DNA of 64,000 nt from an uncultured bacterium (GTDB taxonomy: Bacteria > Acidobacteriota > Thermoanaerobaculia > Multivoradales > JAHZIX01): positions 64,001 to 128,000 of the forward strand of contig CBDUPA010000001.1 in NCBI GenBank assembly GCA_965368975.1, read 5' to 3'. Under the pieces are notes generated by a model. The model made no database searches. It was not told the DNA's origin and worked only from the letters and a program-made list of their open reading frames with translations. The position numbers and the translations under genes are program-made. Position 1 is the first letter of the stretch, and each line of letters opens with the position of its first letter. Shown here one piece after another: positions 2,369 through 12,829 of the stretch.

Positions 2369-2779
2369 TCAGCTGAGTCGCCCGCGGACGACCTGGACGA
2401 ATTGCAGAAGGTCGTCTAGTCGATGCTCCGCGATCGAACGCACGACATCGAGATTGACGTCGTCATAGCCGTGTACCAGGATGTTGCGAAAGCTGATCAT
2501 CTTGGCTAGGTCCTCGGCTTGCGAGGCGTCGAACCATCCTTCCTGCGCCAGCAGGCGGAACAGGTCGCGATTGCTTTCTGGCTGCCCGAGGTTGTCGTCA
2601 GACACGATGTGGGAAGCGATGTCCTGAACCGCCTGGATCGCCTTCTGCAGCATCCGTTCGACGAAACTGCGGTGTTCCAGGTCGTTCTCGATCGCCTCCG
2701 GGCGCAGACGCTGCCGCAGTTGCTCGACGTACGTCTCGATGCTGGCGAGTTTCTTGAGGACGAGTGAACGATCCGTCAT
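2369..2779 (-). CDS. hepT: HEPN/DUF86 ribonuclease toxin (type VII TA, HepT-like)
   Basis: 136 aa with RNILVHGY (Rx4HxY) motif. Its start overlaps the upstream nucleotidyltransferase stop (ATGA at 2776-2779). Confidence 0.85.
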   Translation of the reverse strand: MTDRSLVLKKLASIETYVEQLRQRLRPEAIENDLEHRSFVERMLQKAIQAVQDIASHIVSDDNLGQPESNRDLFRLLAQEGWFDASQAEDLAKMISFRNILVHGYDDVNLDVVRSIAEHRLDDLLQFVQVVRGRLS

Positions 2780-3225
2780 CGCTCCGCCTCCGGCATCTTC
2801 CAACTGCGTCTGAGGATTGGTAGTGCATCCCAGTATTCGTTGCGCGCTCGGACTTCGAAGGCAATGCGGTGGCTGGGATTGGCTTCGACCAGCAAGATGC
2901 CATCGCGCAGAACACGAAACGCCAGGTCGGGCGAGGCAGTATTCAGTGTCACGATCTGGACTTCACGGTGGAGCAGTTCCTGCAGGTCGCTATCGAGGAG
3001 GAACGCCGGGTGATCGAGCGTCGAGGGCGGTGTCTCGGTGAACAAGACCGCCACGTCGACGTCACTGTGTGGCCGAGCGGTACCGCGGGCGAAGCTACCG
3101 AACAAGTAGACGGCATCGATACCGTCGTGGTGCTCTGTGAAGAAGGAACGCAGCGCATCGCGGACTTCAGCGGTCGTTGGGACCGGGGCAACTGTGGGAC
3201 GGGGTAGCGGAGCGACGCTGGCCAT
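2776..3225 (-). CDS. mntA: Minimal nucleotidyltransferase antitoxin (MntA-like)
   Basis: YLFGSFARGTARPHSDVDVAV matches the GSx10DxD motif. Translationally coupled to the HEPN gene. Confidence 0.85.
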   Translation of the reverse strand: MASVAPLPRPTVAPVPTTAEVRDALRSFFTEHHDGIDAVYLFGSFARGTARPHSDVDVAVLFTETPPSTLDHPAFLLDSDLQELLHREVQIVTLNTASPDLAFRVLRDGILLVEANPSHRIAFEVRARNEYWDALPILRRSWKMPEAER

Positions 3226-3418
3226 GATGACTCATTTTCACACAACGAAGGTGCGGAACGCGAAACGGCGGCCTCCGTCGAAGTCTCTTGGCTGCGTGCC
3301 GAGTCGTTCCTGTACACTCCGTCCAGGAGATCGACGTGGCAGCGAGATCGACAGGATGTCGCGACAGCAAGCGCAACTTGGGTTCTCGAGAATTGGGAAC
3401 GGATAGGGTTTTCTTGAC

Positions 3419-5767
3419 TTGACGGTTCTAGCCTCTGAACACACCGAAAGGCAAGGTATCGCTCTCGCGATGTCGATCTTCGAGAAGGTCGGCTTTCTGT
3501 TCCGAGAGCTGAGGGACCACGACCACGGCATCGACGCGGAAGCCGAGCCGGTCGAAGGCGGCCAGGCGACCAGTCAGTTGATTCGACTGCAGGTCAAGGC
3601 GGGGCCGAGCTTTTTCCGGGAGCGAGCCGAGACCGGCTTTGTTTTCCGCTTCGACGACAAGCACCATCGGTACTGGATGAACCACGCCCTGCCGGTAGTT
3701 TTGTTGCTGTGTGACCTCGACCACGGCAAGGTGTACTGGCAGGAGGTTTCAGAGCAGACGGTCGTTTCTACCGGTAAGGGGTGGAAGGTCGTCGTCCCGA
3801 GAAGGCAGATCGTGGATGCTTCCTCCAGGGCGGCTCTGGTGAGGCTGGCGGCCAGGAAGTCGACGGAGAGTGAGTTGGAAGAGACGCCGACCGAGCTGGA
3901 GGAGCTGTACGAGAAGCGTGCCGAGGCTCTTGCCTGCGGCGATGACACCAGCCACCTCGACGCCGAGATCCTGGCGATCAAGCGCAGGAACCGCGCTGGT
4001 GGCAATCTGCACACCGGGGACCTGCTGGCAGGACGCTACAAGCTGCGTGGGGTCCTCGGCGCCGGTGGCTTCGCGACGGTGTGGCAGGCCTACGACAAGA
4101 AGGCGCGGTGTGTTGTCGCGGTCAAGGCGCTGCATGCGCAGTACGCCAAGGACAAGACGCGCCGTGATCGGTTTTTCCGTGGTGCGCGGCTGATGGCCGA
4201 GCTGGAGCATCCGGGCATCGTGCGTGTGCTGGAGCAGCAGCTCGACGACGACGGGCACCACTTCTTCGTCATGGAACACCTTTCCGGTGGGGACTTGCAC
4301 AAGGCGGTGCTGGCGAAGAAGGTGGCGCGCGAGCAGGCGATCGAGCTGGTAAGGAAAGCCGGAGAAGCTCTGGCCTACGCCCACAGCAAGGGCGTGATCC
4401 ATCGGGACGTCAAGCCGGCGAATATCCTGCTGGCTGGCGACGGCCAGCCGAAGCTGACGGACTTCGATCTCGTCCGGGCCCAGGACACCACGGGCGGTAC
4501 GCGCACGGGAGCGATGGGGACCTTCGTGTATGCGGCGCCGGAGCAGCTGGAAGACGCCAAGGCAGCGGACGAGCGCGCGGACGTGTTCGGCTTGGGGATG
4601 ACGCTGGTCTTCGCTCTGTACCGGAAGAAGCTTCCGCCGAAGGTGCTGCGTGATCCGGATTCCGTGGTCGATGATTTGCGCTGTTCGATGGCGATCAAAG
4701 GGGCCCTGAAGAAGGCCGTCGACTGGGAGCTGGAGCAGCGATGGGGGAGCGTGGACGCGTTCTTGGCGGCGCTTCCATGGCCTCCTGCTGTGCAGCAGCC
4801 AGAGCCGAGGAGCCGAGTGCGAGTTGCTGCGGCGGGGGAGCCGGCGGTGATCGCGACGGCAGGGGTGGCACCGGAGGCCGGTGCCGTCAAGGAAGGGCCG
4901 TTCGGGATGCGCTTCCGGTTCATCCCGGCCGGGACCTACACCGCTGGCAGTCCTCAAGACGAGCCCGGAAGGCGCAGCCAGGAGTGGCCGCAGCACCCCG
5001 TCCAGCTGACGCGCGGCTTCTGGCTCGCCGAGACGCCGGTGACGCAGGCGCAGTGGTGCCGGCTGGTGTCGCGGAATCCGTCAGAGTTCCAGAAAGACGC
5101 CGAGAACCGGCCGGTCGAGCAGGTCAGCTGGTTGGACGCAGTCGCCTTCGCCAACCTCCTGTCGCAGCAGGCAGGGTTCCGGCCGTGCTACAAGCTGACC
5201 GAAAGGCATGGCGAGATCGGCAAGGATCTTGAGTGCGATAGCGTCGAGATCCTCGACTCTTGGGTGGGTGGCTTCCGCCTCCCCACGGAAGCGGAATGGG
5301 AGATTGCGGCCAGGGCTGGCACGAAGACGGCTGTCTATACCGGAGGTCTGACGCTGGAAGGCGAGAAGGGAGAGCGAGCCGAGGAGCTGGACGCCATCGC
5401 CTGGTATTCCGGGAACACTGGCTATGGAACGGAGCCCGTGAAGCAGAAGCTGGCGAACGCGTGGGGTCTCCATGACATGCTGGGCAACGTCTGGGAGTGG
5501 TGCTGGGATCTGCCGGGGCACGCCGAGACGGAGCAGCTGCGCGTCGATCCACGCGGAGGTAGCCAGGGCTCGGACCGGGTCGTCCGTGGCGGTTCCTGGT
5601 TCGGCCGCGCGCGCGACGTGCGCGCCGCGTACCGCGACTGGCACCACCCGGGCAGTCGCAGCCTCAACCTGGGCGTCCGCCTGGCCCAAGATCAGGAACA
5701 GCCAGCTGGGCCGGAGGCTCAGCCGGCTCCAGGACAAGACGGGGAGGCCGTGGCAAGGGCCCGATAG
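3419..5767 (+). CDS. Multidomain protein: DUF4365-like N-terminus + Hanks Ser/Thr kinase + FGE-sulfatase (CLec-fold) domain
   Basis: N-terminal DHGIDAEAE...LQVKAG...YWMNHALPVVLL resembles DUF4365 (PD-(D/E)xK-like). Kinase motifs GAGGFATV, VAVK, HRDVKPAN, DFD and APE. FGE motifs RLPTEAEWE, NAWGLHDMLGNVWEW and RVVRGGSW. TTG start is uncertain. Confidence 0.8.
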   Translation: MTVLASEHTERQGIALAMSIFEKVGFLFRELRDHDHGIDAEAEPVEGGQATSQLIRLQVKAGPSFFRERAETGFVFRFDDKHHRYWMNHALPVVLLLCDLDHGKVYWQEVSEQTVVSTGKGWKVVVPRRQIVDASSRAALVRLAARKSTESELEETPTELEELYEKRAEALACGDDTSHLDAEILAIKRRNRAGGNLHTGDLLAGRYKLRGVLGAGGFATVWQAYDKKARCVVAVKALHAQYAKDKTRRDRFFRGARLMAELEHPGIVRVLEQQLDDDGHHFFVMEHLSGGDLHKAVLAKKVAREQAIELVRKAGEALAYAHSKGVIHRDVKPANILLAGDGQPKLTDFDLVRAQDTTGGTRTGAMGTFVYAAPEQLEDAKAADERADVFGLGMTLVFALYRKKLPPKVLRDPDSVVDDLRCSMAIKGALKKAVDWELEQRWGSVDAFLAALPWPPAVQQPEPRSRVRVAAAGEPAVIATAGVAPEAGAVKEGPFGMRFRFIPAGTYTAGSPQDEPGRRSQEWPQHPVQLTRGFWLAETPVTQAQWCRLVSRNPSEFQKDAENRPVEQVSWLDAVAFANLLSQQAGFRPCYKLTERHGEIGKDLECDSVEILDSWVGGFRLPTEAEWEIAARAGTKTAVYTGGLTLEGEKGERAEELDAIAWYSGNTGYGTEPVKQKLANAWGLHDMLGNVWEWCWDLPGHAETEQLRVDPRGGSQGSDRVVRGGSWFGRARDVRAAYRDWHHPGSRSLNLGVRLAQDQEQPAGPEAQPAPGQDGEAVARAR

Positions 5768-5816
5768 GAGCAGCGGCCGGAGGCCGCAGCGAATCGGGAC
5801 CCGGCCTAGGCCGGGG
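5700..5816. other. Cluster of GC-rich hairpins (two with GGA triloops) just downstream of the FGE variable-region-like segment
   Basis: AGCCAGCTGGGCC-GGA-GGCTCAGCCGGCT (5700-5728), GCGGCC-GGA-GGCCGC (5773-5787) and palindrome CCCGGCCTAGGCCGGG (5800-5815). Confidence 0.6.
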
Positions 5817-5856
5817 TTGGGGGGGCGTCTCCCCCGCTGCGGATCTGGGCGCGCGC

Positions 5857-7125
5857 TCAGGTGTGGTGGAAGTCGAACTTGCGGCGCGTGACGACCAGCT
5901 GGTCCTTGGCCACCTCGTGGCGTACGTAGCCGAGCAAGTGGAAGAGTTCGACGGCGAACCAGCGGGCGACCTTGAGGTCGACCAGCAGGCTGCCTTCGAG
6001 TTCGGGGTGCTTGCGCACGCCAGGCAGCCAGTGAGCGATGCGGCCGACGCGGAGCCGGCGCATGACCTCGGAGAGCCGGAGCCAGGCAGGGCTGAACGGG
6101 CGCACGAGGAAGAAGCCGTCGGAACCCTGCTTCTGGTAGAGCGGCATCAGGATGCGGCCGCTCTCCGGACTGAGCACGTCACCGTGCTTGTCGACGGCCA
6201 GCGTTTCGCCCTCGGTGACGTAGTCGAAGCTCTTGTAGCCGAGGTTCATCACGAAGCCGTCACCCGGGCGCACGACGTGACGGTAGCGGGTCTCGCAGAT
6301 GCGTGGCAGGCCGCTGGAGACCTGGTTGAGCAGGGTGCGGCCGGTGGCGGCTTGACGGATCGGCTTGGGTAGCACGCCGGAGGCTTCGAGCGCGATCCAG
6401 ATCGCGGCTTCGATGCGGTCGACGGCTTCGGTGGCCTGGTGCTGGCCGCCTTCGAAGCCGATCGCGACGTGACCGAGTGTACACACGTAGTCGGTGAGCG
6501 TGCCTTTGAGTTCCTCTTCCAGGCCGACGATGATCGGCGCTGGGAAGTGCAGTGCGAAGGCGCGGTTGGGCAGAGTGTCGGCCATGGTGCCGAAGGCGAC
6601 GCTCTTGGCCGAGGTGGTGTGGAAGTCGATCAGGAAGACGGGGCCACGGGCGCGTTCGAAGATGGATTCGAGTTCACGTCGGAGCTCGTCGAGCTGACGA
6701 TCTTCGGGCACCAGACTGTCGGCCAGGGCGCCGGCGCGGCTGGCGACCACGCGGTCGCCGTGCCAGTGGCGGTTGAGGTCGGCTTCCAGATAGCGGTGAC
6801 CAGCCGCCAGTGCTTCCAGGTTGCCGCGCAGACCGACGAACTCGCCGTGCAGGTTCTGAGTCAGCTCGTCGGAGTTCTCGTCGAGCGTCTCGAAAACCCG
6901 CTCGAGTGCTGCGACGCCAGCATTCTCGTTGCCATGCAGGCCCCCGACGCATACCAGGGTGGCGCCGGCTTCATCGCCGACGAGATGTCCGATGAGGCGT
7001 TGCAAGGGGTGATGGGTTTCTTGTCGTGGGGTCGTGGGAGTCGCCGCGCGGGAGAACTCGGGGAGCTCGGGGTCGGCGACTTCGAGGTTGTGGCCAGGGG
7101 CCGGTCCTACATCGGATAAGTCCAT
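5857..7125 (-). CDS. Succinylglutamate desuccinylase/aspartoacylase family (M14-like zinc hydrolase)
   Basis: Motifs GGLHGNE (HxxE), DLNR, IDFHTTS and FEGGQH. Lies directly downstream of clpA. Confidence 0.8.
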   Translation of the reverse strand: MDLSDVGPAPGHNLEVADPELPEFSRAATPTTPRQETHHPLQRLIGHLVGDEAGATLVCVGGLHGNENAGVAALERVFETLDENSDELTQNLHGEFVGLRGNLEALAAGHRYLEADLNRHWHGDRVVASRAGALADSLVPEDRQLDELRRELESIFERARGPVFLIDFHTTSAKSVAFGTMADTLPNRAFALHFPAPIIVGLEEELKGTLTDYVCTLGHVAIGFEGGQHQATEAVDRIEAAIWIALEASGVLPKPIRQAATGRTLLNQVSSGLPRICETRYRHVVRPGDGFVMNLGYKSFDYVTEGETLAVDKHGDVLSPESGRILMPLYQKQGSDGFFLVRPFSPAWLRLSEVMRRLRVGRIAHWLPGVRKHPELEGSLLVDLKVARWFAVELFHLLGYVRHEVAKDQLVVTRRKFDFHHT

Positions 7126-7142: not shown

Positions 7143-9458
<2,316 letters not shown>

Positions 9459-9832: not shown

Positions 9833-10301
9833 AGTTCAGCGGGCAGCAGGCGGGCAGCGCATCAACCCTCGTCACCACTCTACGCAAGCTGAGCGAACGG
9901 GGCAAGCCCTGGAGGTCGCCTCTTACTGCGGTGGCTACGTGGGGGGTGATGCTTTCTGTATGTTCAAGTTTCAATAAGGGAGTTGTTGTTTCCTCCGGGT
10001 CTGCTATAGTTCATGGTAGACCAAAGCTTGAGGAATCCCCCCCTTCCATGCACGCACTGGTCATTCTTTGTATTTGACGATCGCTGAGAAAAACCAACGG
10101 AGATGGCGGTCCGCGGCCTCTTCCGGTATCGCTGGACTACTTTGTCCGAGAAGCGAGAAGCGCCCGTGTCCGGCAAGCACCTACACGGTCGACGGTGATC
10201 GATCATGTGCATCTTTCTATGTCGTCTGCTGTTACTCAGAAGTTCGCGAGGACTCGTGGCCGGTTGGGCCAGGGCTCGCGGTCGAAAGAAAGGGGTCCGA
10301 T

Positions 10302-11129
10302 GTGAGTGGTGGAAACACAACAGAGGTTCGAGCTCAGAAGGGGCGGCTGGGCTGCCCACCGGCGACTCCGCCCAAGGCCTACGAGCCGCCGCGGCAGTCC
10401 GAGATCTTCTTCGACGCCAAGGCGCCGTCGCACATGCATGAGCCGACGGGGATCGAGATGGTCTACATCCCCGGCGGTGTCTACACGATTGGTACCAACG
10501 ATCTCTCGGAGTGGGAGCGCCCGGCGCACCAAGAGACACTCGAATCGTTGTGGCTCGCCAAGTATCCGGTGACGCGCGAGCAGTATGCTCGCTTCCTGGC
10601 TGCCAATCCACGGCAGGCGCGGCCGTCAGGCTGGAACGCCACCAAGGACCCGCACCAGGCCGTGGTGGGCGTCAGTTGGGAGGATGCGCGCGACTTCTGT
10701 GATTGGGCGGGCCTGCGCTTGCCCCGGGAAAGTGAGTGGGAAGCCGCGGCGCGCGGACCCGAAGGTCGCGATTATCCGTGGGGCAACGCGGCGCCGGCTG
10801 CCTGGTTGGCCTGTTTCGCCGAGAACTGGCGCACCGGCATCGCCCCGAACGTCGATGCTCTGCCGACCGGCGAAGGTCCCTTCGGCACCATGGCACAGGC
10901 CGGACACGTCTGGGAATGGTGCGCGGACGTCTGGGACGCGAAGGCCTATCAGCACCGTGACATTTCCCTGGACCGCGATCCCCACGTCACCGACATCGAC
11001 CTGCGGCGCTTCGTGCTGCGCGGCGGTGCTTGGCTGAGTCCGGCGCGCCACTTGCGCTCAGCGTACCGCAGCTGCGGTGGCGCCAAGCTGCGCGAGGACA
11101 GCATCGGGTTCCGGGTGGCCTGCAGCTGA
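10302..11129 (+). CDS. Formylglycine-generating enzyme family (FGE-sulfatase/SUMF1 domain) protein
   Basis: Motifs KYPVT, GVSWEDA, RLPRESEWEAAARG, YPWG, GHVWEW, LRGGAW and IGFR. Start placed at GTG 10302 after AAAGGGG (alternative ATG ~10434). Confidence 0.8.
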   Translation: MSGGNTTEVRAQKGRLGCPPATPPKAYEPPRQSEIFFDAKAPSHMHEPTGIEMVYIPGGVYTIGTNDLSEWERPAHQETLESLWLAKYPVTREQYARFLAANPRQARPSGWNATKDPHQAVVGVSWEDARDFCDWAGLRLPRESEWEAAARGPEGRDYPWGNAAPAAWLACFAENWRTGIAPNVDALPTGEGPFGTMAQAGHVWEWCADVWDAKAYQHRDISLDRDPHVTDIDLRRFVLRGGAWLSPARHLRSAYRSCGGAKLREDSIGFRVACS

Positions 11130-12829
11130 TGGGACAAGTACCAGGTCGCGTGATGGTGGTGTCCCTGATGGCGGTGTCCCTGACCCTGGCCCTGGCCCCC
11201 GCCGAGGCGAGCACGCCCGGCCCGCCGCCCGCGAGTGCGGTGCACGGTCACTACGTCGTGCTGGGCCAGAGTGCCGGAGCGACCGTCGCCTATGCGCGTG
11301 CGGTGATCGAGCCAGGCTACGCTTGTCCGGCGCTGCAAGCCGCCTCGGGTGCGACCTCGGCTGGCGATTCATCAGTGGATCCGTCTACGGCCATGGTGAC
11401 GCGCGGCAACCCGCACGCCTTTCCGGTGATCGTCTGCGAAGCGCGCGTCGAGTTCGACACCACCTACACCCTGCAGCTCGATGGGGCGACGCTCGAGCTG
11501 CCACGAGTCCGGCGCAACCCGGCACGCTTGCTGGGCTTCGGTGACACCGGCTGCAAGGCGGGAGCGGCGTCGGAGGGCAAGTGCCCGTGGGGTACGCCCG
11601 CCGAGCCGCTCAAGACGCTGGCCGACGCGGCTGCCGCGGGGCCGGCGCCGGACCTGATCGTGCATGTTGGTGACTACAACTACCGCGGCACGCCGGGGCC
11701 GATTCTGTTCAGCCAGATCCACGACGGTGCCGGCAAGCAGGTTGCGCAGTGGCCCTACGACGCGGGTGATGACAGCACCGCCGAGCAGCACTGCGAGCAG
11801 GATCCCAACGACGCCTACTGGGACATGAATGCGTCCAACGCCAACTACCCGGATCATTGGGCGGCCTGGCGCGATGACTTCTTCACGCCCCTGGCCGCGT
11901 TGCTGCCAAAGGCGCCGTGGATCTTCGCGCGCGGCAACCACGAGCTGTGCAGCCGTGCCGGTCCTGGCTACTTTTACTTCCTGGACCCGGCGTCCAACCT
12001 GGCACCGGAAGGCCAGCGCTCGTGTCCGACACCGGACCCGCGGCGGCCGATCTTGGACAAGGTGGTGCTGGCCGATCCGTATGTAGTCGATCTCGGCACC
12101 TTCGCCCTGCTGGTGGTCGACTCGGCCAATGCCTGCGACTACTTCTCGAACGATGCGTTCACCGCGCAGTATCGGCGGCAACTCGGCCAGGCGACCGCCC
12201 TGCTGCCGCCCGAGCGGCCGACCTGGCTGGTCAGTCATCGGCCGATGTGGGGGCTCACCCAGTTCGACAGCGACGGCGGTACGACGACCGGATGCAGGGC
12301 CGGGGACGACACGTGGGGCTGCGTCAACAAGACGCTGCAGGCGGCGTCGAGCGACGGTGCCACGCTGCCGGCGCAGATCACCTTGCTGCTGGCTGGTCAC
12401 ATGCATCGCTTCCAGAGCACCACGTTCGCTGCTGACGACACGGCCGTTGCTGACGACACGGCCGGCCGTGCTGCCACCCTTGCCGCCGCGACGCACCGGG
12501 CTCCGACGCTGGTGATCGGCAACGGCGGTGTGGCGCTCGACGACCGGCCCCCGGCGGGCACGATCCAGGTCACCATCGCAGGGCAGGCGGCGCAGGTCCT
12601 GTCGCTGGCCAACCAAGTGCAGACGCCCAGTGGCATGCAAGACGCGTTCGGCTACCTGGACGCGACCCTGGCCTCGGACGGCGGCTGGAGCGGCACGATC
12701 GTCAATCCGGCGCGTGGCCTGACGCTGGCCGAATGCGGCAGCGCACGCGCGGCGCAGGGCTCGGTGTGTGAGCTGGCGTCAGGTGTGCAAGCGGCCCAGT
12801 TCGGAGCTTCTAACGTGACCGTTCCCTGA
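11129..12829 (+). CDS. Secreted calcineurin-like metallophosphoesterase
   Basis: Signal-peptide-like N-terminus (VVSLMAVSLTLALAPAEA). Motifs GDTG, GDYNY, GNHE, SH and GHMH. TGATG coupling with the upstream FGE gene. Confidence 0.8.
   Translation: MGQVPGRVMVVSLMAVSLTLALAPAEASTPGPPPASAVHGHYVVLGQSAGATVAYARAVIEPGYACPALQAASGATSAGDSSVDPSTAMVTRGNPHAFPVIVCEARVEFDTTYTLQLDGATLELPRVRRNPARLLGFGDTGCKAGAASEGKCPWGTPAEPLKTLADAAAAGPAPDLIVHVGDYNYRGTPGPILFSQIHDGAGKQVAQWPYDAGDDSTAEQHCEQDPNDAYWDMNASNANYPDHWAAWRDDFFTPLAALLPKAPWIFARGNHELCSRAGPGYFYFLDPASNLAPEGQRSCPTPDPRRPILDKVVLADPYVVDLGTFALLVVDSANACDYFSNDAFTAQYRRQLGQATALLPPERPTWLVSHRPMWGLTQFDSDGGTTTGCRAGDDTWGCVNKTLQAASSDGATLPAQITLLLAGHMHRFQSTTFAADDTAVADDTAGRAATLAAATHRAPTLVIGNGGVALDDRPPAGTIQVTIAGQAAQVLSLANQVQTPSGMQDAFGYLDATLASDGGWSGTIVNPARGLTLAECGSARAAQGSVCELASGVQAAQFGASNVTVP

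Follow-up and report, generated by a model that had tools for sequence, protein, structure and literature searches.

The sensor gene and its lectin domain

The window analysed here is the whole stretch of 64,000 nucleotides from contig CBDUPA010000001.1 (C1 in the following) of an uncultured bacterium, and on its plus strand it carries at positions 3419-5767 an open reading frame (ORF) of 782 aa with a TTG start, which encodes a DUF4365 domain, a Ser/Thr kinase and an FGE-type C-type lectin (CLec) domain. The 3' end of this gene contains a block of 135 nt (5564-5698, plus strand) that is probably an orphan variable repeat (VR), written by a diversity-generating retroelement (DGR) into what we describe below as a DREN-kinase-CLec sensor. 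The Pfam matches of all three domains far exceed the curated cut-offs. The gene call in the protein database for this locus comprises 765 aa (100 % identity) and fits an ATG start at 3470, and the true start of the ORF is uncertain by 17 codons (TTG at 3419 versus ATG at 3470).

The N-terminal domain (aa 10-143, positions 3446-3847, plus strand) belongs to DUF4365 (PF14280, 112.5 bits at a cut-off of 24.3), and DUF4365 is the same as the DREN domain, which has a PD-(D/E)xK fold, according to the SPARDA structure paper (PMC12205087). Its matches in the PDB are solved DREN-APAZ chains (9jsb_D, E 5.9e-6, with the GID...QxK motif aligned) and two entries named "DUF4365 domain-containing protein". 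The predicted catalytic residues, taken from the alignment to the solved DREN, are D39 (3533-3535), Q58 and K60 on the plus strand, which in the HMMER alignment correspond to the catalytic residues D41, Q60 and K62 of the NbaSPARDA DREN. There, D41A and Q60A abolish the nuclease's collateral activity and K62A impairs it, and this activity requires tetramerisation of DREN (PMC12205087). Judged from the family match and the intact catalytic D...QxK triad, the nuclease head looks competent. As neither APAZ nor PIWI is found by Pfam in the protein, nor in the eight flanking ORFs that were scanned, it is not a member of SPARDA, which combines DREN-APAZ with a short Argonaute. The only other DUF4365 domain of the genome lies at C6:166654-167052 on the minus strand, in an open frame of 454 aa.

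The central part of the protein (aa 207-428, 4037-4702, plus strand) is a Hanks-type Ser/Thr protein kinase (PF00069, 141.8 bits), the translation of which contains the Gly-loop GAGGFA, the VAVK lysine, HRDVKPAN, DFD and AAPE; the DFG motif has become DFD, with Gly replaced by Asp and the metal-binding Asp kept. The C-terminal part (aa 501-756, 4919-5686, plus strand) is the FGE-type C-type-lectin domain of the FGE-sulfatase family (PF03781, 167.4 bits). Its best PDB match is TvpA (2Y3C), a DGR variable protein of Treponema denticola, with E 2.3e-33, compared with 5.8e-20 for true FGEs. Catalytic FGEs have an active-site cysteine pair, which is located after the GGS motif. In the alignment with the FGE 5nxl_A, the FGE reads ...lchesyC..., where the lectin domain has a gap of three residues and no Cys. 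Since there is no Cys where an FGE has its cysteine pair, the domain is, by its sequence, a TvpA-like non-enzymatic binding domain and not a catalytic FGE. By the PF03781 match and the similarity to TvpA, the block at 5564-5698 is positioned at the 3' end of a domain of C-type-lectin fold, as expected for the VR of a DGR.

The original prediction for this locus, a DUF4365-kinase-FGE/CLec fusion with a putative PD-(D/E)xK nuclease, is borne out in its domain architecture. Pfam places all three domains in one 782-aa ORF, the profile search with PF14280 confirms DUF4365, and with the PDB alignment and the kept catalytic residues the nuclease can be named more exactly as DREN. The protein had also been called an immune-like conflict protein, which holds, since the nuclease motifs are intact and kinase-FGE fusions with swappable effector heads are a large known class.

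The variable block and its partner on contig C13

The best match of the candidate in the genome is C13:178198-178344, and the block itself is identical to C13:178212-178346 (minus strand) save for 17 sites, which fall on codon positions 1 and 2 of 12 codons (9, 8 and 0 differences at positions 1, 2 and 3). None of the 45 third positions differs, and all 12 differing codons of the 45 are nonsynonymous. The 141 nt upstream of the block present a different picture, as candidate and C13 differ there at 55 sites, 26 of which are third positions (Fisher p 2.7e-4 versus the block), and the identity falls across a sharp boundary from about 97 % at the non-variable sites of the block to about 61 %. The block extends from three codons before RVVRGGSW to just past GxRL, ending just before a hairpin, and this extent equals that of TR16, the template repeat (TR) of a DGR on contig C16 of this genome, and of its VRs. 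Among 325 pairs of FGE C-termini, the candidate/C13 pair is the most extreme one, with third-position differences of 0/36 in the block versus 12/24 upstream, and it is closely followed by the verified VR pairs that have a template in common. The variable codons of candidate and C13 encode F/I, G/Y, R/D, D/Y, D/N, H/R, H/P, S/D, S/F, L/S and N/H in the core and Q/L at the edge of the block. Within the 36-column core 11 codons differ, and ten of these belong to the 17 columns in which TR16 has an adenine at codon position 1 or 2 (hypergeometric p 6e-4), and adenine is present in one copy at 11 of 16 differing sites, compared with 0.347 in the other pairs (p 0.006). Within the family, the copies found in relatives (at best 80 % identical) have diverged in the usual way, with many third-position changes.

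Indirectly, the comparison of one VR with the other points to variation that is confined to sites of the template-adenine type at codon positions 1 and 2. This pattern is that of two VRs written from one template, and it supports a DGR origin of 5564-5698. To our knowledge, no other mechanism yields identity of a block with differences only at positions 1 and 2.

The partner on C13 is a protein of 1166 aa (C13:177150-180653, minus strand) with two FGE domains as its sole Pfam matches, in which the block lies inside the ORF and not at the C-terminus; in its N-terminal part of about 590 residues, Pfam detects nothing at E <= 1e-4. The ORF that follows contains a third FGE domain, and the relatives G001-G003 harbor similar multi-FGE arrays.

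The DGR signature had originally been read from the codons, because the variable positions of the CLec segment are mostly NNC or NNT (NNY) and would in this form result from A-to-N writing. The count is right, as C or T is the third base in 31 of the 45 codons of 5566-5700, compared with 0.47 across the whole ORF (binomial p 0.0026). For scoring, TR16, the one FGE-like template, was aligned with the C-terminal parts of all 26 FGE domains in the genome, and NNY codons were counted in the 17 adenine-codon columns. The candidate reaches 14/17 within a range of 7/17 to 15/17. Since two template-less paralogues on C7 reach 15/17, with several others at 13-14/17, while the six verified VRs score 15, 12, 10, 9, 8 and 7 of 17, the codon bias is not diagnostic. 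Seven residues that had been listed as codon evidence (F, D, Y, D, H, H, N) have NNY codons only. The codon clue reflects the amino-acid composition of this part of the fold in a GC-rich genome, and it does not discriminate DGR targets. The DGR reading is supported through the footprint shared with the C13 paralogue instead of the codon bias.

Two hairpins with a GGA loop follow the block on the plus strand. The one at 5700-5728, which starts 2 nt after the block and is still within the ORF, was predicted as a 13-bp stem, but is an imperfect, GC-rich one of 12 pairs with one G-T and one internal mismatch (-9.8 kcal/mol, z -1.8; 8 of 200 shuffles fold as well). The one at 5773-5787, 6 nt after the stop codon, is present as predicted, with a perfect 6-bp stem in the folding (-9.1 kcal/mol, z -2.7; 2 of 200 shuffles are as stable). 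Each hairpin singly is only modestly better than the shuffles. Their distribution says more, as GGA-triloop hairpins are found downstream of only five of the 26 FGE domains, namely those of the candidate, C13, C14 and the two C12 genes C12a and C12b, where nine with stems of at least 5 bp were observed versus about 0.05 expected from their density in the whole genome (0.029 per kb and strand). The motif CAGCCAG-NN-GGGNC GGA GNCNC right after the block is common to the candidate, C12a, C12b and C14 and includes one compensatory C-G/G-C swap, and the second hairpin, GCGGCC/GGCCGC in the candidate, has a counterpart GGCGGC GGA GCCGCC at the same place in C12a and C12b. It is followed by a conserved 3' module, AGCGAATCGGG-ACCCGGCCTAGGCCGGGG-TTGGGGGG (5788-5830, plus strand), which the candidate shares with the C12/C14 set and which includes the element AGCGARTCGGRACCCGGCCWAGGCCGGGG, whose 18-nt palindromic core has three exact copies in the genome (C1, C12, C14) and one copy with one mismatch at C1:502779. 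Both-side changes occur in five of the 48 predicted pairs of the module, which, with four sequences of which three are close, is too thin for a claim on structure. For its retrohoming, phage BPP-1 depends on a GC-rich hairpin just downstream of the VR (PMC3240598). Elsewhere in the genome, the unit GACCGG GGA CCGGTC is repeated three to four times close together at C35:1-81 and C53:8067-8180, once at a contig end, and these arrays could be a tandem or CRISPR-like repeat.

The flanking genes are ordinary and encode an arginine deiminase, a toxin-antitoxin pair, an AstE-like enzyme, ClpA and ClpS. The toxin-antitoxin pair, a HepT-like RNase and an MNT-type nucleotidyltransferase (2369-3225, minus strand), is located about 200 nt upstream of the sensor gene on the opposite strand, and the named relatives of the neighbouring ClpA are metagenome-assembled genomes of Acidobacteriota and Thermoanaerobaculia with 62-69 % identity. 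Neither a reverse transcriptase (RT) nor a template lies near the gene, and the eight flanking ORFs that were scanned contain no Argonaute, APAZ or PIWI. The window contains a second FGE locus at 10068-12829 (plus strand), where an FGE-only protein of 353 aa overlaps the start of a calcineurin-like metallophosphatase of 599 aa. The FGE-only gene has neither a VR partner nor a GGA hairpin. It had been said to lack both features of the candidate, which is right for the hairpin but not for the codons, as it scores 12/17 NNY.

Cassettes, the missing template and further orphan sets

The assembly that was searched consists of 59 contigs with 7.13 Mb and is 99.3 % complete by marker genes. It contains five RVT_1 matches, three of which are DGR-type RTs; the other two carry a GIIM domain and are maturases of group II introns. 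The cassette on C16 is complete and comprises a NACHT-CLec target, bAvd, the template TR16 (C16:92586-92716), the RT (371 aa) and a second NACHT-CLec target, and its TR/VR mismatches fall on template adenines in 22 of 27 and 22 of 37 cases. The cassette on C15 has an HTH accessory gene, the template TR15 (7183-7341, minus strand) and a 337-aa RT, and is flanked by SIR2-NACHT-CLec and Mrr-NACHT-CLec targets, with TR15/VR mismatches at adenines in 10/11 and 7/7. The locus C9:138650-140900 is a copy of the C15 locus (C15:5700-8250) with 1165 nt identical, which has kept the N-terminus of HTH and an RT that is 91 % identical to that of C15, and which has no template. Compared with TR15, the mismatches of its two VRs are at adenines in 9/9 and 17/25, and this template-less locus is possibly served in trans. 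DGR-type RTs are therefore present in the genome at C16, C15 and C9, together with an accessory protein at C16 (bAvd) and C15 (HTH). DGRs with adenine-specific TR/VR pairs of their own also occur in relatives from the same family (G002:C6:159500-167000, G002:C4:1-5000 and G001:C201:4000-11500); at G002:C4:1-5000, the repeat at 1555-1700 differs from that at 3222-3367 at 15 sites, all of which are T on the plus strand. DGRs thus appear to be common in this lineage.

Several observations weigh against a DGR origin of the block, among them that its template is missing. TR16 and the candidate are identical at 61 of 99 nt, but 18 of the 38 mismatches are at non-adenines, and the alignment stops before the 3' homology GGTTTTCGTGTTG...CTCCTC, which both real VRs of TR16 have kept. 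TR15 yields only a local match of 25 nt. With the 18 non-adenine mismatches of the one and the 25-nt match of the other, neither TR16 nor TR15 fits as the writer of the block. When 5400-5830 was compared by BLAST with all contigs of the assembly (word size 7, E values up to 10), only paralogues were returned. In a BLAST screen for adenine bias over the 26 FGE C-termini, the candidate had an adenine fraction of at most 0.35, and this versus a paralogue; as a control, five of the six verified VRs were flagged and the sixth had 0.59 (range over the six 0.59-1.00). A homology-free scan of the assembly for AAC/AAT-rich windows found TR16 as the sole FGE-like template. A DNA search of 41 genomes, the own one and those of relatives, found no template-like copy of the block, and the DGR loci of G001 and G002 contain their own TR/VR pairs and no template of the candidate's type. 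Exact scans with two invariant stretches of the block gave 0 matches in metagenome_contigs (34-mer and 30-mer) and in genome_contigs (34-mer), collections that may omit the own genome. Thus no cognate template that matches all non-adenine positions was found, though the same screens recover TR16 and TR15, and with the template absent the adenine specificity at the block can be inferred only indirectly, from the sites that differ between the two copies. Four VR sets without template, as described below, are also a lot for missing contigs alone to explain at 99.3 % completeness.

The hairpins belong in part to the same side of the balance. About 68 nt past the verified VRs of both C16 targets lies a 9-bp stem closed by a CTTG loop, and three of the four C15/C9 targets have, likewise about 68 nt downstream, a stem of 7-8 bp and a loop of 5 nt (GGGCT or CGGCT). 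The C13 partner has no comparable hairpin, but only a 5-bp GGA hairpin 62 nt past the block. The consensus of phage DGR hairpins is a 7-10-bp stem with a 4-nt GRNA loop at 4-34 bp from the VR (PMC3240598). The hairpin at 5700-5728, with its z of -1.8, fits such a role in position, but its GGA loop is not GRNA.

Since no cognate template was found, we classify the block as an orphan VR and not as a demonstrated target. At this point the original prediction, in which the block is targeted remotely by a DGR of this genome, fails, because the BLASTn search for an adenine-specific template next to an RT found none that fits. Moreover, tblastn with RT16, RT15, Avd16 and HTH15 detected no remnants of an RT or accessory gene near C1:69.7 kb or C13:178 kb, where the only matches are weak FGE-type ones from the template-encoded part of the HTH15 ORF. 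In two metagenome runs of one study, the locus shares 0.15 and 0.05 of the sampled words with low-coverage Logan contigs; the stretches 3419-3720 and 3743-3897 are matched without a difference by two contigs of run X1, and 5660-5900 is uncovered.

The candidate/C13 pair is not the only one of its kind. Three further template-less sets in this genome show identity of a block with differences at positions 1 and 2. The set of C12a, C12b and C14 (C12:229393-234440, C14:31380-33836) encodes a kinase-CLec protein, a TIR/SEFIR-kinase-CLec protein and one in which the FGE domain alone is recognised, and C12a and C12b have two differences in the 26 upstream codons, yet 18 differing sites in the 36-codon block. 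The C7 set (C7:35311-38766) consists of two tandem genes, one of them with a caspase domain, and the C2 set of two convergent genes for a metallophosphatase-NACHT-CLec and a TIR/SEFIR-kinase-CLec protein. Including the candidate, the four sets make up nine of the 26 lectin domains, and pooled over all four, adenine is involved at 43 of 57 differing sites versus 0.347 (p 4e-10).

It is the C2 set that explains how such orphan VRs arise. The intergenic gap between its two genes (C2:345999-346663, 660 nt) contains the N-terminal 70 aa of a C15-like HTH accessory gene (E 1.6e-8) and the C-terminal 78 aa of an RT of the DGR type (E 4.4e-4 in the genome-wide search, 1e-8 in the local one), with nothing between the two remnants. 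By these sequence remnants, the gap is a decayed DGR cassette from which the template and most of the RT have been deleted. Despite its decayed cassette, the C2 set has third-position differences of 0/36, and therefore a perfect register is no proof of present-day activity. Taken together, the cassettes of this genome are found in the states complete, template-less, remnant only and nothing left.

Origin of the block and meaning for conflict sensors

We consider it likely that the block at 5564-5698 was written by a DGR. A template-repeat RNA would have been reverse-transcribed with errors at adenines and the resulting cDNA would have replaced the 135-nt segment, while the same template would also have written the second segment inside the multi-FGE gene on C13. 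The template cassette may since have been lost, as at two other loci of this genome, or may be located on unassembled DNA. In analogy to the phage systems, the hairpin at 5700-5728 could have served as the structure for target recognition, and the current sequence of the tip would be one draw from a DGR-generated repertoire. The variable tip is suggested to bind an invader-derived ligand, which would relieve autoinhibition or drive oligomerisation via the kinase, whereupon the DREN head would cleave nucleic acids collaterally in a manner similar to abortive infection. This path of activation from ligand via kinase to nuclease is modelled on the bacterial NLR-like and kinase-CLec conflict proteins (PMC10907252; PMC7517822; PMC7159879) and on the work on SPARDA.

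One alternative needs no retroelement at all. Candidate and C13 gene would be ordinary paralogues, in which a short gene conversion between C1 and C13 was followed by point mutation under diversifying selection at the ligand-contact codons. An assembly without template agrees with this, as does the NNY-rich composition, which is general to these FGE C-termini, and selection limited to about 17 contact codons would, as we estimate, give about four same-codon pairs per 17 changes. However, it would have to account for 0 synonymous changes among the 17 differences next to saturated flanks, for the excess of adenine at the differing sites (11/16 here and 43/57 pooled, versus 0.347), for a block extent that matches the verified TR/VR pairs and for the recurrence of such a block, just as sharply bounded, in three other sets, of which one lies on a decayed DGR cassette, and we therefore regard it as unlikely. 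That one of the DGRs on C16, C15 and C9 is instead targeting the block remotely at present can hardly be believed. Three DGR-type RTs are present, and use of a template in trans is plausible because the C9 VRs differ from TR15 at adenines though C9 has no TR; it has also been proposed for Thiohalocapsa (PMC10907252). But the 18 non-adenines among 38 mismatches and the absent 3' homology of TR16, the mere 25-nt match of TR15 and downstream hairpins unlike those of both verified DGRs speak against it.

A further possibility is a hypermutation without any template repeat, in which an RT copies the transcript of one VR gene into its partner and the GGA-hairpin module acts as address. It would fit the four VR sets (9 genes) without template in a genome that is 99.3 % complete, and also the 3' module, which the candidate and the C12a/C12b/C14 set share and which is found almost nowhere else. 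In one step, though, neither copy can have served as donor for the other, since adenines at the 20 BLAST mismatches are split between C13 with seven and the candidate with six. In known DGRs the RT primes from RNA elements that flank the TR and are absent from target mRNAs, which also counts against it, and the plain deletion of a cassette as at C2 explains orphan sets without a new mechanism, so that we hold this possibility to be very unlikely. A slightly wider proposal, that the dispersed targets are written wholly in trans, either from a template on an unassembled mobile element or from partner transcripts and with the GGA-hairpin module as address, has a small chance of being right; if true, it would be a mode of DGR action without a linked cassette.

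With an orphan, DGR-written repeat as the preferred reading, the locus joins a class that is known. The putative antigen sensors of Thiohalocapsa PB-PSB1 carry the same C-terminal FGE-type CLec with a VR on NACHT, kinase, TIR, caspase or metallophosphatase proteins (Dore et al., 2024; PMC10907252). As in the genome described here, several DGR loci, incomplete loci, remote targets and variable sites at codon positions 1 and 2 are reported there, the targets of DGR 7 have VRs without a perfect template match in the reference genome, and other loci are served in trans (PMC10907252). Unlike Thiohalocapsa, the host appears to be an uncultured bacterium resembling Acidobacteriota/Thermoanaerobaculia, and the effector head is DREN/DUF4365, a name with 0 occurrences in the main text of that paper, the supplements of which may list such heads (PMC10907252). 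The same fusion of a Ser/Thr kinase with a C-terminal CLec is found in the remote kinase-CLec proteins of cyanobacteria, which are likewise paralogues dispersed from a DGR cassette with VR-like segments at the 3' end (Vallota-Eastman et al., 2020; PMC7517822), but unlike these the gene analysed here carries a nuclease head. In the cyanobacterial study, "remote" was defined by a VR identity of at least 50 % (PMC7517822). The candidate passes this rule with 61.6 % to TR16, yet the non-adenine mismatches exclude TR16 as its writer.

TvpA is the best solved relative of the lectin domain (query 46-276), and the C-terminal segment RVxRGGSW...GxRLA aligns residue for residue. It is a stand-alone variable protein of the lipoprotein type, unlike the lectin here, which is the tail of a cytoplasmic-looking nuclease-kinase fusion. 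The N-terminal part is of the same DUF4365/DREN family as SPARDA DREN-APAZ, with the catalytic triad aligned (9jsb; PMC12205087), but unlike in SPARDA the predicted sensor is a protein-binding lectin tip with a kinase and not a guide-loaded Argonaute. Fusions of kinase and FGE are abundant, with 3042 proteins at E <= 0.001 among 8000 candidates scored, and the heads among the best 120 of these 3042 relatives include TIR, SEFIR, caspase, CHAT, Mrr and others, with PF14280 only in the protein described here. A search with residues 1-175 found, among proteins of 430-1369 aa, one other protein, which is not a kinase-FGE fusion, and in the library searched we found no paper that combines "DUF4365" with "diversity-generating retroelement", although the supplements of the key papers may list such heads. 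Conflict proteins with CLec sensors diversified by DGRs, among them remote targets and targets without a template, are a known class, and it is the DREN head that is new.

With this gene, the effector heads that are found on kinase-lectin sensors come to include a collateral nuclease of the DREN type. For remote DGR targets in general, neither codon bias nor a rule of 50 % identity succeeds in identifying them, whereas the comparison of paralogous repeats does, even when the template is absent. The cassettes of this genome in their various states of decay suggest that a frozen repertoire of diversified immune-like receptors can originate from retroelements.

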